Assembly: GCA_963675665.1 (NCBI GenBank)
Contig: OY776510.1
Location: 832,001-896,000, forward strand
DNA: 64,000 nucleotides
Origin: Spirochaetia bacterium
GTDB taxonomy: Bacteria > Spirochaetota > Spirochaetia > UBA9216
Direction of reading: 5' to 3'
Shown here: positions 3,241 through 62,937 of the stretch, piece by piece
Layout of the letters: each line of letters begins with the position of its first letter
Numbering within the stretch: position 1 is the first letter of the stretch
Position numbers and translations under genes: made by a program
Notes under the pieces: generated by a model
The model's database searches: none
Seen by the model: the letters and a program-made list of their open reading frames with translations, nothing else
What the model was told of the DNA's origin: nothing

Positions 3241-3891
3241 TCAGAACAGGGGCTTTTCCCTGTTGGGATCCCCTATTGAACGCAGAGTTTTTCCGGACGG
3301 GTTCAACAGCGTCCGCCGGCCTTTCAGGGATCGCGAAATCGTCAGGCGATCGGCATATTCCAGGTCTCCGCCGGCAGGAAGCCCTGAAGCCAGCTGTGAA
3401 ATTCTGAGTCCTGAATCTTTCAAAAGATTAACCAGATACAGCGCGGTAGTTTCACCCTCCACTGTCGGATTTGTCGCAATAATCAGTTCGCTGACTTTTT
3501 CGTGTTTTAATCTGTGTAACAGTTTTCCAATTGTAAGTTCTTCCGGGCCCTTTCCGTCTATCGGCGAAATTACACCGCCGAGAACATGATATAAACCTTT
3601 GAAATCTCCCGTCGGTTCAATAGTGCTTATATCTTCCGGCTGTTCAACAACGCAGATCAGGCTGCGGTCCCGGTTGTGATCGGAACATATCGGGCAGGGA
3701 GAATCCTCTGTATAATTACCGCAGATTTCACAGAATTTTACGCGCTCTTTGAGTCCGGCTATCTGAGAGGAAAGATCCTGCACCCAGTAATCTTCCGCCT
3801 TAAGCAGGTAATGTGCAACGCGACGGGCGCTTTTCGACCCTATTCCGGGAAGTTTTGAAAGACTTTTAACAAGTTGATCGAGCGGATTCAT
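3241..3891 (-). CDS. recR: Recombination protein RecR
   Basis: LPGIGSKSARR HhH motif, C4 zinc finger, Toprim ATNPTVEGETTA. Confidence 0.97.
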   Translation of the reverse strand: MNPLDQLVKSLSKLPGIGSKSARRVAHYLLKAEDYWVQDLSSQIAGLKERVKFCEICGNYTEDSPCPICSDHNRDRSLICVVEQPEDISTIEPTGDFKGLYHVLGGVISPIDGKGPEELTIGKLLHRLKHEKVSELIIATNPTVEGETTALYLVNLLKDSGLRISQLASGLPAGGDLEYADRLTISRSLKGRRTLLNPSGKTLRSIGDPNREKPLF

Positions 3892-3910: not shown

Positions 3911-4228
3911 TTACATTCCCATCATTTCCGGCGGAAGGTTCAAATCTCCGGCTATCGAGGCTGCTTCTGATTGAATTTTCGCCTTTATCTTGTTCGAAGC
4001 GTCTGTAAAAGCGGAAAGAACCAGATCTTCAATAAGTTCCGGATCTTCAGGATCAATTACTTCTTTTGCTATTTTCACATCAAGAACCGAATATTGTCCC
4101 GTTAACACCACTTTAACCATTCCGCCGCCGGATTCTCCTTCGGCGGTTACTTCATTAAGTTTATTCTGCATCTCCTGCATTTTAGACTGCATACCCTGCA
4201 GATTTTTTATCATATCCATCGGATTCAT
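3911..4228 (-). CDS. ybaB: YbaB/EbfC nucleoid-associated protein
   Basis: GESGGGMVKV and EDLVLSAF motifs. Sits in the dnaX-ybaB-recR operon. Confidence 0.95.
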   Translation of the reverse strand: MNPMDMIKNLQGMQSKMQEMQNKLNEVTAEGESGGGMVKVVLTGQYSVLDVKIAKEVIDPEDPELIEDLVLSAFTDASNKIKAKIQSEAASIAGDLNLPPEMMGM

Positions 4229-4234
4229 ATTTAC

Positions 4235-4454
4235 TCCTACAAAAACTGCTTGCCACGGACGGCAGGTTACGGAGAATGAAGTTTAAAAGTCTTATTTTTA
4301 AACTTCAAGATAAAAAAGAACATGGATGTTCTTTTTTTATCCGTCCTGCAAAAAATCCCTGCCATGGATGGCAGGTTACAGTGAATGAAGTTTAAAAAGT
4401 CTTATTTTTAAACTTCAAGATAAAAAAAGAACACGGATGTTCTTTTTTTATCCG
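4235..4454 (-). mobile_element. Two tandem copies (109 and 111 bp) of a triple-hairpin non-coding element inserted at the ybaB Shine-Dalgarno site
   Basis: TCCT cores at 4235, 4344 and 4455 delimit two near-identical units. Each unit has three hairpins: cctgccatggatggcagg; tgaagtttaaaaa..tttttaaacttca; gataaaaaaagaaca-cgga-tgttctttttttatc. Confidence 0.8.
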
Positions 4455-6013
4455 TCCTGCACAATTTCACCGCGAAAAACCTTCTTAACCGCATCAACCT
4501 GTTTGTTCAGATTATGCTGTCCTTCATCGATTTCCCTTGTTTTACCTGTCTGAACAACTTCAACTTCGATAATAAACTTTTTGCCTGTAATATCCGTTAA
4601 CGCGTCCTGAATAATGTTTCGATCGTTTTTTACAACCGATGCGGTATAGCCGTTATCAAAAGAAAAACTTATACTGTCGCCGGATTGCCGCCAGCCGACA
4701 GCCTGGTCTATTGATGCTGCAAGAGTCAGTTTCTTTTTACGTATTGCATTAAGCACCGCGTCCCTCTGTTCCGATGTCAGTCCGGTTTCAGAATGATGAA
4801 TTTCCGGTTGGACAGATTCGGTAACAAAAGGATTTTCGTTTTCATCTTCCGCTTTTTCTTCAAATTCTCCGGCGGCAATATTCTGTTTTAATTTTTCCAG
4901 TCTGTCATAAACCTCTGCAGGCGAAATCCATGCAGCAAGATCGGATAATTGCGCAAGGACCAGTTCAAGTTCAAACCTCGGATTAATTGAATAACGGACA
5001 TCCCTGTAAAATGAAAAAATCAGTTCGAGAGCTTTTTCAAGCTGGCTCTTGTTGAAAGCGTTCACGGTTGTTTCTGAATAACGCGCGCGGGCATATCCAA
5101 GCAATGATTCTTTTTCTATTCCGCAGCGTATAAATAAAAGGCTCCTGAAGTATTCGGCCAAATCCACAGCAAATTGTTCAATTGAGACTCCGCCTGCAAT
5201 TATTTCAGAACTCAGTTCCATGACCTTTACGGAACTGCGGGAAGCCATTGCTTCAACTATGACATTCATACTGTCGAGACCGACAAGACCAAGCTTTTCC
5301 CGAATCTTTTCCAGGGTAACCGTACCGTCTGAAAATGCCGCAACCTGGTCAAAGAGGGTATAGGCGTCGCGCATGGAACCGGTTGCTTCTTTGGCAATCC
5401 AGAACAGCGCATCGTCTTCCGCGTCTATTTTCAGCTCTTCAGCCGCCAGCTGAAGGCTGTTTTTTATTTCCTCAAGTGAAATAAGCCTGAAATTAAACTG
5501 CTGGCAGCGGCTTCTTATTGTAGCAGGGACCTTGTGGATTTCGGTTGTTGCAAAGATAAAGATAATATATGGCGGCGGTTCTTCTATTGTTTTTAAAAGC
5601 GCATTAAACGCCGAATTAGACAGCATATGAACTTCGTCTATTATGTACACTTTATAGCGGCAGGAATTGGGCGCGAAAAGAACTTCATCCTTAATCTCGC
5701 GGATGTCGTTGACCGAGGTATTCGAAGCACCGTCAATCTCTATTACATCGAGAGCATTGCCGCGCGCAATTTCCGTACAGGCAGAACATTTTCCGCAGGG
5801 TGTCGGAGTAGGTCCTTCTTCACAGTTAACCGCCCGGGCCAGAATACGTGCGGCCGAGGTTTTTCCGACGCCGCGCGGACCCGAAAAAAGATACGCATGG
5901 GCTATTCGGCCTGCCTTTATTGAATTCTTTATTGTTGATACGACGAATTCCTGGCCGACAAGATCTTCGAACATGCCGGGACGCCGCCGCGTTGCTGTTA
6001 CTTCATATGCCAT
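4448..6013 (-). CDS. dnaX: DNA polymerase III subunit gamma/tau
   Basis: GPRGVGKT Walker A, IIDEVHML, SRC motif, C4 zinc finger. Start placed at MAYEV. Confidence 0.97.
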   Translation of the reverse strand: MAYEVTATRRRPGMFEDLVGQEFVVSTIKNSIKAGRIAHAYLFSGPRGVGKTSAARILARAVNCEEGPTPTPCGKCSACTEIARGNALDVIEIDGASNTSVNDIREIKDEVLFAPNSCRYKVYIIDEVHMLSNSAFNALLKTIEEPPPYIIFIFATTEIHKVPATIRSRCQQFNFRLISLEEIKNSLQLAAEELKIDAEDDALFWIAKEATGSMRDAYTLFDQVAAFSDGTVTLEKIREKLGLVGLDSMNVIVEAMASRSSVKVMELSSEIIAGGVSIEQFAVDLAEYFRSLLFIRCGIEKESLLGYARARYSETTVNAFNKSQLEKALELIFSFYRDVRYSINPRFELELVLAQLSDLAAWISPAEVYDRLEKLKQNIAAGEFEEKAEDENENPFVTESVQPEIHHSETGLTSEQRDAVLNAIRKKKLTLAASIDQAVGWRQSGDSISFSFDNGYTASVVKNDRNIIQDALTDITGKKFIIEVEVVQTGKTREIDEGQHNLNKQVDAVKKVFRGEIVQDG

Positions 6014-6083
6014 ATGCGGAATTGTACATGATAATCGGGGAGGTATCAATGTGAGATTGTAATAAATGGTTTGAAAATAAAAA

Positions 6084-6185
<102 letters not shown>

Positions 6186-6191
6186 AATATA

Positions 6192-6276
6192 CGGAGAGAG
6201 GGGGATTCGAACCCCCGGTACCTTTCGATACACACGCTTTCCAAGCGTGCGCCTTCGACCGCTCGGCCATCTCTCC
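6192..6276 (-). tRNA. tRNA-Ser(GGA)
   Basis: GGAGAGA acceptor, CACGC-TTGGAAA-GCGTG anticodon arm, long variable arm, GGTTCGAATCC. CCA is not encoded. Confidence 0.96.
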
Positions 6277-6329
6277 TGAAGGTTATTTTTTACTGTTTCA
6301 GGTTGAACATAAACCGTAAACAGTGCTGA

Positions 6330-6514
6330 TCGGAGAGACAGGGATTCGCCTTCCGGCTCCACACATCCCGTGCGTATCCTTCAGGCCGCCTCTTTCGCTG
6401 GCGGCCGGCATCCGTGCCGTCCTCTCCTCGCCGGCTCGGCGCTCATTCGGTTCGAATCCCGTATAAACTATATTAAAGTATTAATAAAATATAATACTTT
6501 AAACAGTTGTTTCT
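6330..6514 (-). repeat. 185-bp tRNA-linked element bounded by a 19-bp duplication of the tRNA-Ser(CGA) 3' end
   Basis: tcggagagacagggattcg occurs at 6330-6348 and 6515-6533. The interval holds an inverted T-arm copy (ggttcgaatccc at about 6449-6460) and GC-rich hairpins. Confidence 0.7.
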
Positions 6515-6515
6515 T

Positions 6516-6603
6516 CGGAGAGACAGGGATTCGAACCCTGGGTACAGACGAGCTGTACAACGGCTTTCGAGGCCGCCCGATTCAACCACTCTCGCATCTC
6601 TCC
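6516..6603 (-). tRNA. tRNA-Ser(CGA)
   Basis: GCGGC-CTCGAAA-GCCGT anticodon arm, long variable arm, T-loop. Confidence 0.96.
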
Positions 6604-6628
6604 CTGAAACCCCGTAAGGGAAAAAAAG

Positions 6629-6702
6629 TATACCCAAGAGGACTCGAACCTCCGACCTTTAGGTCCGCAACCTAACGCTCTATCCAACTGAGCTATGGGT
6701 AC
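6629..6702 (-). tRNA. tRNA-Arg(GCG)
   Basis: GTACCCA acceptor, TTAGG-TTGCGGA-CCTAA anticodon arm, GGTTCGAGTCC. Confidence 0.95.
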
Positions 6703-6859
6703 CTGTAAAACTTTCAAAAATCGGTTATTTTTGAAAGTTTTTTGAATTAAAACGACCTGAAGACAGAACGTTTTAATTCCAAGTTCTTCCGGTAGAACCG
6801 TTAAAAATTGAAATTTTTAACGGGCCTTCGGAATTATAACACAAAAATATATAAAAAAA

Positions 6860-6946
6860 CGGAGAGGGAGGGATTCGAACCCTCGGTACCGTTGCCAGTA
6901 CAACTCCTTAGCAGGGAGCCCGATTCAACCACTCTCGCACCTCTCC
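6860..6946 (-). tRNA. tRNA-Ser(GCT)
   Basis: GCTCC-CTGCTAA-GGAGT anticodon arm, long variable arm. Confidence 0.96.
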
Positions 6947-6968
6947 GGTTAAACCAAATATAAAAATA

Positions 6969-7053
6969 CGGAGAAGGTGGGATTCGAACCCACGGAACCT
7001 TTCGGCTCAACGGTTTTCAAGACCGCCTCCTTCGACCGCTCGGACACCTCTCC
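6969..7053 (-). tRNA. tRNA-Ser(TGA)
   Basis: GCGGT-CTTGAAA-ACCGT anticodon arm, long variable arm. Confidence 0.96.
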
Positions 7054-25691: not shown

Positions 25692-25804
25692 GATTATAAA
25701 ATGAAGTACAACCTTCCCCGGTCCTTTGCTTGCTTGAACCGGGGAATGAGGGTTTACTAATATATTTTTTTGTCGGGCCGCCTTGGCCCGTGCAATCTAA
25801 GGAG

Positions 25805-25902
25805 TAATAAAAAATAACCTCCATGTTATTTTTTATTTTGAAGTTTGAAAATTCTTTCAAACTTCATCTCCGTAACCGCTTCCATGCGGAGAATTTAAGG
25901 AG
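25805..25902 (+). mobile_element. Triple-hairpin element (98 bp) at the metK Shine-Dalgarno site
   Basis: TAAGGAG is repeated at 25798-25804 and 25896-25902. Hairpin order and the tctccgtaacc linker match the 4.2-4.5 kb units. Confidence 0.78.
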
Positions 25903-61406: not shown

Positions 61407-61468
61407 TTGGATCTCCTATAAAAAGTCAACCACAAGCTAAAAATATAAGCTTATGATCTGGTCGGATA

Positions 61469-62581
61469 TCAACCGACCATTACAGCTTCCCATGCTGCTG
61501 CCTGCATTTCCCTGTATTCTTTTCTAAAAGCCATTTTCATCGGATCAAACGGCTCTCTGGTTTTTAAAATTGTATATACCAAAGTGCTCATCTTGCGGGC
61601 GGCAGCTATTACACTCTTACCCGAGCCTTTCTGCTTCTTCATCGCTGCATACTTCGTCATTATTCGGTACGTCCCGGTCTTCTTTTGCATACGAACCATT
61701 CCCATCACCATCTGTACGAAGGCTGTCCTCAGTTCTACAGGCCCACGCTTTGTTATATGTCCATGATGTATTGTCATATTTGAGTTCTGCACCCATGGCA
61801 CAAGCCCGGCGTTTGCTGCATATTTCTTCGCACTATCATATCTGCCGATATCGTCTGTATAGGCTCTTACTGTTGCTGCTGTTATTAGACCCACGCCTGG
61901 TATTGTCTGCAGAAGCTCAACATCTTCATCGTCCTCCACAAGCTCAGCCAAAACCTTTTCAAGCTGCTTGACTTGCGATGCCTGATTATCTATCATATCC
62001 AGTAACGGTATTACCGTTTTGGCAGCGCTTCCGTAAAAGTCGTGGTCCTCGAGACCGTTCAGGATTCGCTGCCTTTCTTTTTTACTCTGCAGCTGTCCGC
62101 GTTTGGTCTCTATTCCATAACCAAGTAATAAGCCATGCACCTGGTTCTTTAACGACACAACAGATTTTACCAGTATCGACCTGGATTTCAGCACCCTTCG
62201 AATATCCTCACTCTCTTGGGAACATAATATCGATTCAGGCAGCATGTCTTTCTCAAGAAACTCCGCCAGGGTGCGTGCATCATGTTTGTCTGTCTTTTTT
62301 ACAGATTCATTCACTACCTTGAATTTCAAAGTATTCACTACAACCACTTCGACTCCAGCCTTTAACAGTTTATTGCGGAAATAACGGGCATTCCCGGTTG
62401 TTTCCACCGCTGCTCTCAACTCATATTCCTCTTCACAATATTCATCCAGCATTTTCAGAAATGCTCCATAACCATTTCCGCTGGTCGGATACATTCCCAA
62501 TTGATCAATTTTTCGGTCTTCACTTAAAAGGCATACTGTAAACTGCGTTTTGTGAAGATCCACGCCAATACTCATCTTCAT
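61469..62581 (-). CDS. IS110-family DEDD transposase / bridge recombinase
   Basis: RuvC-like GVDLHK, AVETTG and KTDKHDA (DEDD). Tnp domain TIPGVG, AGLVPWVQNS, ITKRG, AAARK. Confidence 0.96.
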   Translation of the reverse strand: MKMSIGVDLHKTQFTVCLLSEDRKIDQLGMYPTSGNGYGAFLKMLDEYCEEEYELRAAVETTGNARYFRNKLLKAGVEVVVVNTLKFKVVNESVKKTDKHDARTLAEFLEKDMLPESILCSQESEDIRRVLKSRSILVKSVVSLKNQVHGLLLGYGIETKRGQLQSKKERQRILNGLEDHDFYGSAAKTVIPLLDMIDNQASQVKQLEKVLAELVEDDEDVELLQTIPGVGLITAATVRAYTDDIGRYDSAKKYAANAGLVPWVQNSNMTIHHGHITKRGPVELRTAFVQMVMGMVRMQKKTGTYRIMTKYAAMKKQKGSGKSVIAAARKMSTLVYTILKTREPFDPMKMAFRKEYREMQAAAWEAVMVG

Positions 62582-62616
62582 GTTCTATCTCCAATAGTTT
62601 GAAGCAGTGCCTATAC

Positions 62617-62776
62617 GGTGAATTGTTCCATTCTCCTATCCGGTCTCGCAGACCATTGAATGTTTCGGTTACGGCTCTTCAATCTCCTAAACGGTCTCGC
62701 GGACCAGTAAAAATGTCGAACAGTAACCTTACTGCCTCAATTAAAGTTAAGGCAGTATATCAATTCACCAGCTCAT
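62617..62776 (-). ncRNA. Putative bridge RNA in the IS110 left (upstream) non-coding end
   Basis: Closing stem ggtgaattg/caattcacc and a 5' hairpin tactgcct..aggcagta. Two internal-loop arms are capped by GGTC(C/T)GCGAGACC, each followed by TAGGAGA. Confidence 0.72.
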
Positions 62777-62794
62777 GAAGACTTTTTATCATTC

Positions 62795-62937
62795 CTCCTA
62801 TAAAAAGTTCCCGCATGGATGCGGGTTTTAAGAGGTGAGGTTGTAAAGCTAAACTGCGTTTGCAGTTTAAACTGCGTTGCAGTTTTTGTTTTACAACTTC
62901 AAAATGATAAAATTGCATGGAAGCAATTTTATCATTC
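62795..62937 (-). mobile_element. 143-bp triple-hairpin non-coding element with the same termini as the adjacent IS110
   Basis: Left end AGGAG|GAATGATAAAA and right end ACTTTTTATAGGAG are identical to the IS ends. No ORF. Confidence 0.82.

Follow-up and report, generated by a model that had tools for sequence, protein, structure and literature searches.

How did two strongly structured repeat units come to part dnaX and ybaB, essential genes that normally overlap, in the genome of a spirochaete? We addressed this question in a window of 64,000 nucleotides (positions 832,001 to 896,000, forward strand, of contig OY776510.1) from a Spirochaetia bacterium of the lineage UBA9216, whose genome (G000; 5.15 Mb, one contig) also carries, within the same window, an IS110-family insertion sequence (IS) to which we give our own label IS1. 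The answer that we favour, and consider probable though well short of assured, is that the two units are decayed members of a non-autonomous family, resembling MITEs (inverted-repeat transposable elements of miniature size), that was moved by a bridge recombinase of the IS1 type.

The 219 nt between the dnaX stop codon and the ybaB start codon are made up of two head-to-tail units (Table 1). Tandem Repeats Finder (TRF) reported a single array at 4235-4461 (period 109, 2.1 copies, 90% matches, 1% indels, score 373), and in gene direction the array boundaries read AGGAC, AGGAC and AGGAG. The two units of 109 and 111 bp with AGGA-type boundaries that had been proposed in an earlier reading of the letters without database searches (hereafter the sequence-only reading) were thus recovered both by the program and by our reading of the strand. 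That reading had further proposed that the inserted DNA supplies a new end for dnaX and a new Shine-Dalgarno motif for ybaB, and the letters agree on both counts: the 3' end of dnaX is GTG CAG GAC GGA TAA (stop at 4450-4448; protein ending ...IVQDG), and unit 1 ends in GTAGGAG, its AGGAG (4238-4234) being followed by TAAAT (5 nt) and the ybaB ATG (4228-4226). The left junction's AGGAC we take to be what is left of the target's original Shine-Dalgarno motif or core. Three hairpins are present in each unit; their perfect arms measure 15, 13 and 8 nt in unit 2 (inverted repeats I4, I5 and I21) and 12 and 12 nt in unit 1 (I12 and I8). Neither unit contains any of the open reading frames (ORFs; at least 40 aa) that were listed, so that at this length both are without a transposase gene of their own.

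Both units belong to a described RNA family. Each exceeded the gathering score of Rfam TD-2 (RF03162; 48.7 bits) over the full model (1-98), unit 2 with 67.5 bits at 4358-4456(+) and unit 1 with 54.9 bits at 4249-4345(+), these plus-strand matches being antisense to dnaX and ybaB. The hallmarks of TD-2, a set of three hairpins of which the first and third have conserved AYGGAU-type loops, were seen in the cmscan alignments and the inverted repeats. Across G000 there were 42 TD-2 matches at E<=1, 18 of them above the cut-off, and an nhmmer profile built from the TD-2 matches of this genome returned 98 matches, of which 91 were non-overlapping and 57 full length. The sequence-only reading had allowed that the unit might occur nowhere else in the genome; with 57 full-length copies it is a dispersed family, and relatives of the TD type were also found in five sister species. 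Dispersed copies are only ~75% alike, those with perfect ends included, and elsewhere in G000 TD elements form arrays of two to five units. The largest of these, with five TD-type units that are 93-99% alike (genome 1652333-1652894), ends at a gene start codon.

IS1 is the candidate mover. Its transposase ORF (61469..62581, minus strand; 370 aa) matches DEDD_Tnp_IS110 (PF01548, 9.3e-18) and Transposase_20 (PF02371, 1.4e-17), and G000 holds 15 copies of the element with an identity of at least 99%. All 15 start right after AGGAG and in the orientation of the downstream gene, with 6 nt (n=12), 5 nt (n=2) or 7 nt (n=1) between the right end and the ATG. IS1 inserts between Shine-Dalgarno motif and start codon, supplying a replacement AGGAG. 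The 5' RNA of the element is predicted to fold with two loops, each capped by GGUCYGCGAGACC (z -4.9), which form a putative target-binding and a putative donor-binding loop. The target-loop letters catttttact (62715-62706) and tttaggag (62691-62684) lie either side of the GGTCCGCGAGACC hairpin, and the guides match the target flanks and the IS ends. The IS110 element with a guide RNA that had been noticed in the window is therefore real, with both protein domains present and both guide stretches located; an Rfam scan of the IS1 5' region gave no match to a bridge-RNA family.

Protein relatives of IS1, 52-79% identical, were found in Oceanispirochaeta, Syntrophales, Desulfobacterales, Treponema and other assemblies. 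At their loci the exact left-end 15-mer recurred in 44 of 80 cases and the exact right-end 13-mer in 52 of 80, with an ATG 3-10 nt downstream in 39 of 52. The donor loop and the IS ends are constant across IS1 orthologues, while the 3' guide of the target loop follows the left flanks: it reads TTTAGGAG in G000, TACAGGAG in Oceanispirochaeta, with ACAGGAG in five of the six left flanks read, and CAAAGGAG in Syntrophales, with AAAGGAG in three of the four read. Covariation of the putative guide with the flanks is the behaviour expected of a bridge RNA.

Two side observations concern the ends of IS1. A circular form, in which the right end meets the left end, would by eye have a junction of TTGACT, 17 nt, and TAAAAA preceded by TG, which would be promoter-like. 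At one locus of a Spirochaeta assembly (L094), downstream of the transposase, the last ~27 nt of the IS right end (...TTGAGCTCACGGTTGACTTTTTATAGGAG) stand twice in tandem before the target ATG, a duplication confined to the right end.

TD elements and IS1 share a common left end, right end, target and orientation. In gene direction the TD consensus runs xGGAG/GAATGATAAAA, hairpins 1, 2 and 3, then TTTTTATAGGAG/N5-7 ATG, where the slashes mark the boundaries of the element. Among the 57 full-length elements, the 15-nt IS1 left end (with its GGAG) was present exactly in 15 and with at most two mismatches in 24, and the 12-nt IS1 right end exactly in 8 and with at most two mismatches in 31; exact IS1 ends mark a subgroup of the TD elements. 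An ATG followed 3-11 nt after the right end in 41 of the 57, and the remaining 16 mostly had another unit or IS1 next. The left-end 15-mer occurred 34 times in G000, 15 times in IS1 copies and 19 times elsewhere, whereas its reversed control had 0 occurrences. G002 and G006 contain elements that combine these ends with different interiors, and the match to the IS1 left end reaches 19 nt in G002. In genomes with IS1 relatives, the number of left-end motifs was about the number of IS copies, and a TD-2 search of five such genomes gave no match in any of them. We rejected a classical MITE derived from a DDE transposon as the type of element, the ends being no inverted repeats except for a short A/T run and the repeated AGGAG being core-like, common to element and target.

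Filled and empty alleles were found at several sites. The third TD-type element of the window is filled in G000, where the site reads caatctAAGGAG, 98 nt ending in AAGGAG, and then aagaaaatATG, and the same site is empty in G001, G003 and G004, which have a single AAGGAG, 7-8 nt and ATG. An element at genome 742051-742184 is present in G000 and G001 and absent from G003, G004 and G005, and the empty site of G005 reads cggatAAGGAGgaatgATG. In this G005 site (L184, AAGGAG gaatgATG) the right half resembles the left end of the element (GAATGAT) and the left half its right end; the likeness to a donor junction may be chance.

At dnaX-ybaB itself, six loci of relatives (L002, L005, L006, L007, L009 and L012) are empty, with the dnaX stop 0-2 nt before the ybaB ATG, and at L010 dnaX runs straight into a GTG start, the genes abutting without a unit. 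G001 has an unrelated 47-nt spacer, and G004 has a single three-hairpin unit at the same place as the pair in G000. These alleles agree with the proposal that the units are insertions at the junction of Shine-Dalgarno motif and start codon. The G004 unit is 63% identical to the G000 dnaX units, vs 68% to other copies, and orthology of the G004 and G000 units was rejected for this lack of special similarity. The alleles with zero and one unit that the sequence-only reading had proposed to look for among relatives thus exist across species; its exact empty allele, CAGGAGTAAATATG, was not found among them, which is unsurprising because the relatives, with dnaX ending ...QGGN/QGGE, are only 74-79% identical to G000 here. 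Four public sequencing runs were searched, all in the form of contigs, and among them no contig with zero units or a single unit joining the dnaX and ybaB flanks was seen. The source is probably run X6. In run X8, pieces that equal the window letter for letter lie to either side of the array, none of its contigs spanning it, and in a bridging contig of run X9 (organism B, flanks ~97% identical) 91 other letters stand in place of 133 nt of the array.

The rebuilt target is used again. IS1 lies directly after a TD-type element in 6 of its 15 copies (5 by profile, 1 by eye), which exceeds random choice among 1125 AGGAG-N4-8-ATG sites (rough binomial p 6e-5 to 7e-4). Within arrays, some neighbours are 93-99% alike and others 71% and 56%, as different as unlinked copies, and this mixture indicates that both local duplication and independent insertion beside a resident unit occur. 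Since the left donor (LD) half of IS1 resembles the left target half, the junction of LD with the right target (RT) half after an insertion (LD/RT) would again be a good target. Re-use of a regenerated core, as the sequence-only reading had supposed, is therefore seen in the six IS1 copies and in the unrelated neighbours, but the dnaX pair itself is better explained by duplication. Its two units are 88% alike in a global alignment (90% by TRF) and at most 75% alike to any other copy, and the 8-nt TGCAGGAC stands at both the left and the middle junction, which fits duplication in place. One insertion followed by duplication in place would be simpler, and would fit better, than two arrivals.

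That a bridge recombinase placed the units, as had been suggested, agrees with the family's ends, target and orientation, which are those of IS1; the ends of the dnaX units themselves are degraded, and we infer both the IS1-type recombinase as mover and the following order of events. The IS1 bridge RNA would direct insertion between AGGAG and start codon, always in the orientation of the gene, and the IS1 right end would bring a new AGGAG, so that the downstream gene would keep a ribosome-binding site and a near-perfect target would be rebuilt. At the ancestral junction, 0-2 nt would have separated the dnaX stop from the ybaB ATG, and the last dnaX codons would have contained the Shine-Dalgarno motif. 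An IS1-type recombinase, acting in trans together with a bridge RNA, would have placed one unit at this motif, and that unit would then have been duplicated in place, possibly by recombination between TGYAGGAS junctions with or without the recombinase. Both copies would since have diverged by ~10%, with decay of their ends. What results is a dnaX with a changed end (...VQDG-stop), a spacer of 219 nt filled with hairpins, of which two are terminator-like, and the new ybaB Shine-Dalgarno motif (GTAGGAG). For the present IS1 guide the dnaX units are probably fossils.

Table 1. Features of the dnaX-ybaB junction, of IS1 and of further TD-type elements, in window coordinates; a slash marks an element boundary.
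Feature	Position	Strand	Remarks
recR	3241..3891	-	
ybaB/ebfC-family gene	3911..4228	-	Translation starts from unit 1's right-end Shine-Dalgarno motif
Unit 1, three-hairpin TD-type, 109 nt	4234..4342	-	Ends TTTTTGTAGGAG (GTAGGAG), the ybaB Shine-Dalgarno motif
Unit 1 hairpin 3 and T run	4251..4264	-	Intrinsic-terminator-like (pattern scan)
Unit 2, three-hairpin TD-type, 111 nt	4343..4453	-	Contains the dnaX stop TAA; ends TTTTTTGCAGGAC; AGGAC at 4347-4343
Unit 2 hairpin 3 and T6	4358..4375	-	7 pairs, 5 of them G-C; intrinsic-terminator-like in sense direction (pattern scan)
dnaX (DNA polymerase III tau/gamma)	4448..6049	-	Last two codons and stop in or next to unit 2
Left-junction AGGAC	4454..4458	-	In the last dnaX codons (CAG GAC); family left junctions read xGGAG/GAATGATAAAA
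Third TD-type element	25805..25902	+	TD-2 match 25802-25895; inserted at the AAGGAG Shine-Dalgarno motif 25799-25804
IS1	61413..62794	-	Left end GAATGATAAAAAGTC..., right end ...TTGACTTTTTATAGGAG; between AGGAG and downstream ATG (61406)
Putative donor-binding loop	62633..62662	-	CATTCAAT - GGTCTGCGAGACC - GGATAGGAG; matches the IS ends (ATAGGAG / GAATG)
Putative target-binding loop of bridge RNA	62684..62715	-	CATTTTTACT - GGTCCGCGAGACC - GTTTAGGAG
TD-type element, 143 nt, exact IS1-type ends	62795..62937	-	Directly upstream of the window's IS110 element

Several findings weigh against movement of the TD family by IS1. The ends of the dnaX units match those of IS1 at 12/15 positions on the left and at 11/12 and 9/12 on the right, and over the 57 elements the end columns (0.73 and 0.61) are not better conserved than the interior (0.72-0.75). 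There is also no simple fit for the register of the right-hand guide: against the predicted target, real IS1 sites have a median of 10/16. The sequence-only reading had counted 9/10 matches between catatttact (4226-4235) and the guide catttttact, and 13/16 between the rebuilt empty site and its predicted 16-mer. Both counts are correct, and the 13/16 does not discriminate: the 15 real IS1 sites score 9-14 (median 10), the 1125 AGGAG-N4-8-ATG sites have a median of 9, and scoring with this 16-mer, which fails to separate IS1 sites from ordinary ribosome-binding sites, was set aside. On the same scale the rebuilt site (13/16) ranks among the best 1.8% of sites resembling ribosome-binding sites, and the junction as it now stands (14/16) among the best 0.7%. 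With an identity of at least 99% the IS1 copies are young, whereas the dispersed TD elements, ~75% alike, are old, so that there is no sign of the recent IS1 burst having moved the TD elements.

The distribution of the two elements also counts against IS1. Among the 11 genomes of the family, mostly drafts, which are also all the genomes of the order examined, IS1 protein (E<=1e-20) was found only in G000, and TD-2 elements are present in G001-G004 despite this. Four contig ends of G009 (L147, L154, L161 and L167) run 60-77 nt into an IS1-like left end, so IS1 is probably present but unassembled in that genome, and G005 (L173) has a truncated IS1 left end plus part of the guide RNA. These traces indicate that IS1 is more widespread than protein searches of draft genomes suggest. 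At E<=1e-6, TD-2 was matched in 8 genomes of a sample of 151 from the class, namely G000, G003, G004, G008 and four complete genomes (2.7-2.8 Mb) of one other genus, g38, which gave the strongest TD-2 matches. The g38 genomes each have 19-25 such matches among the matches listed (25 candidates scored per genome); all four gave no match to PF01548 (IS110), and IS1-type ends or a following AGGAG-ATG were present in none of the eight g38 elements read. This abundance without IS110 indicates that the hairpin core can multiply independently of IS110, and it looks as if in the window's family the core became framed by IS1 ends. In the g38 genomes (L201-L209) the TD-2 core often adjoins partial copies of its own hairpins. 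A comparison of orthologous g38 loci for empty sites was dropped, the region being full of repeats and multi-copy genes.

Repetitive extragenic palindromic (REP) sequences and bacterial interspersed mosaic elements (BIMEs), with their REP-associated tyrosine transposases (RAYTs, of the Y1 type), are dispersed, structured intergenic palindromes that are often arrayed and are frequent targets of IS110-family elements. The TD elements could be an old repeat of this kind that spread independently of IS110, in which case IS1 would merely target their Shine-Dalgarno right ends and the dnaX pair would never have been handled by a bridge recombinase. We consider this unlikely. It would account for the abundance of the core in all four g38 genomes without PF01548 or IS1-type ends, for the confinement of IS1 protein to G000 among the family genomes, for the gap between ~75% and at least 99% identity and for the 6 of 15 IS1 copies at TD right ends, and a second IS110 type in G000 does target a different small palindromic repeat. 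Yet it leaves unexplained why 15 of 57 elements have an exact copy of the 15-nt IS1 left end (up to 19 nt in G002), an end that is kept by IS1 relatives in other phyla, where none of the five genomes searched had TD-2 and there was no clear surplus of the motif. It equally leaves unexplained the shared orientation and the empty sites, whose difference from the filled ones is exactly one element plus one AGGAG. Unlike REP sequences and BIMEs, TD elements have a fixed orientation to the downstream gene and a defined insertion point, and a search for Y1/HUH transposases (PF01797) gave no match in G000, the control being positive in 6 of 14 genomes.

The units might instead be kept for a function of their own, with mobility secondary, as a plus-strand small RNA (sRNA) antisense to the junction or as a cassette of terminator and ribosome-binding site that uncouples ybaB-recR from dnaX. 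Structure speaks for such a function. The 251-nt stretch folds at -87.5 kcal/mol, whereas shuffles gave -47.4 +/- 4.1 (z -9.7) and none of 200 did as well, and over the 57 copies all three hairpins show strong covariation: 22 pairs are predicted, 94% of the cells are paired and 3-4 pair types occur at several pairs; the loop sequences are conserved as well. Covariation could equally reflect a DNA or RNA structure needed during transposition. In both units hairpin 3 with its T run is terminator-like and immediately precedes the Shine-Dalgarno motif, and 900 nt contained 4 terminator-like sites vs 0.8 +/- 0.9 in shuffles, while promoter signals on either strand were not above chance (1 found vs 1.7 expected). 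TD-2 was judged a possible non-coding RNA by Weinberg in 2007 (PMC1950547), but most relatives are without any element at dnaX-ybaB and the genes downstream of the elements are unrelated to one another. An own function as the reason for the units, although compatible with mobility, appears improbable to us. That the pair is nothing more than a dnaX terminator duplicated on the spot, without any mobile origin, is very improbable: the two units are indeed each other's closest relatives (88-90%), but G000 has 57 full-length relatives and five sister species have more, in most relatives the junction is empty, and the G004 unit there is dissimilar (63%).

Movement by an IS1-type bridge recombinase thus remains the reading that we prefer, and it can be compared with known systems. 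IS110 elements of the mycobacterial IS900 group, a lineage different from that of IS1, insert in one orientation between ribosome-binding site and start codon, and we know of no hairpin MITE family associated with them. With IS621 and ISEc11 (PMC11208160, PMC11187229), IS1 has in common its DEDD and Tnp domains, two guide loops in a 5' non-coding RNA, guides matching the halves of target and donor on either side of a shared core, and the lack of long terminal inverted repeats; it differs in that the IS right end (left donor half) closely resembles the left target half, so that the target is nearly rebuilt. In the laboratory, provision of transposase and non-coding RNA in trans suffices to move mini-elements that keep nothing but the IS ends (PMC11187229).

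A natural counterpart is MITEPpu9, the MITE-like partner of the IS110-family element ISPpu9 of Pseudomonas putida, which is found both beside the IS and alone, with mobilisation in trans proposed (PMC12288879); TD elements likewise occur in both settings. MITEPpu9 carries the sRNA gene ssr9, has 8 copies and inserts into REP sequences, whereas here at least 57 three-hairpin copies insert into ribosome-binding sites and the site is rebuilt. Two preprints report cargo repeats in tandem and non-coding units in tandem next to IS110 elements (10.1101/2025.10.25.684509 and 10.64898/2026.08.14.744561). The arrays of the second resemble ours in consisting of short non-coding units, having boundaries with left-donor matches and arising from repeated local insertion or duplication; they adjoin the transposase module, whereas no IS1 copy lies near the dnaX pair or near most of the arrays described here.

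The TD-2 and TD-1 motifs (RF03162, clan CL00124) were described as candidate RNAs without assigned function, multi-copy in Treponema denticola only, TD-1 being the overlapping reverse complement of TD-2 and having in most cases a gene just downstream of it, these genes showing no relation among themselves (PMC1950547); Rfam classes TD-2 as 'Gene; sRNA'. The elements studied here agree with that description in their three hairpins, their conserved loops and the TD-1 orientation upstream of genes, and differ from it in having defined ends (GGAG/GAATGATAAAA ... TTTTTATAGGAG), an exact position at the ribosome-binding site, presence and absence alleles and tandem arrays. In the limited literature searched, we found no paper linking TD-1 or TD-2 to IS110 or to mobile elements.

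More tentatively, TD motifs in this spirochaete-like group may be the cargo of a two-tier RNA-guided system, in which an IS110 lineage aimed at ribosome-binding sites is accompanied by hairpin mini-elements that use its ends. Each hop of such a natural, programmable 'RBS-swap' (ribosome-binding-site swap) cassette would replace a Shine-Dalgarno motif, add a terminator-like hairpin and rebuild the target, so that sites would fill into arrays and coupled pairs such as dnaX-ybaB would be parted. If movement by IS1-type elements is true, TD-2 and TD-1, which have had no assigned function in Rfam since 2007, would be passengers of a bridge recombinase, at least in this family, and not stand-alone RNA genes, and they would form a second and much larger natural case, after MITEPpu9, of non-autonomous elements served by IS110. 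A donor half that mimics the target half would mean that the target is rebuilt and arrays can grow, which bears on the behaviour of bridge recombinases faced with similar target and donor, a point of importance for their use in genome engineering. For annotation, the same reading would explain the 219 nt of hairpins between two normally overlapping essential genes and the differing C-terminus of dnaX.

Two minor observations concern the surroundings. The second IS110-type element of G000, unrelated to IS1, has 7 copies (387-aa protein; for example at genome 553001-557000 and 2621202-2622705) and a 346-aa relative at genome 4457488. The small palindromic repeat that it targets reads CCTCTAA..CCC...GGG..TTAGAGG, and one of its copies interrupts hairpin 1 of a TD-type element. 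Immediately upstream of dnaX, the minus strand carries a small signal recognition particle (SRP) RNA at 6084-6182 and then five tRNA genes at 6192-7053.

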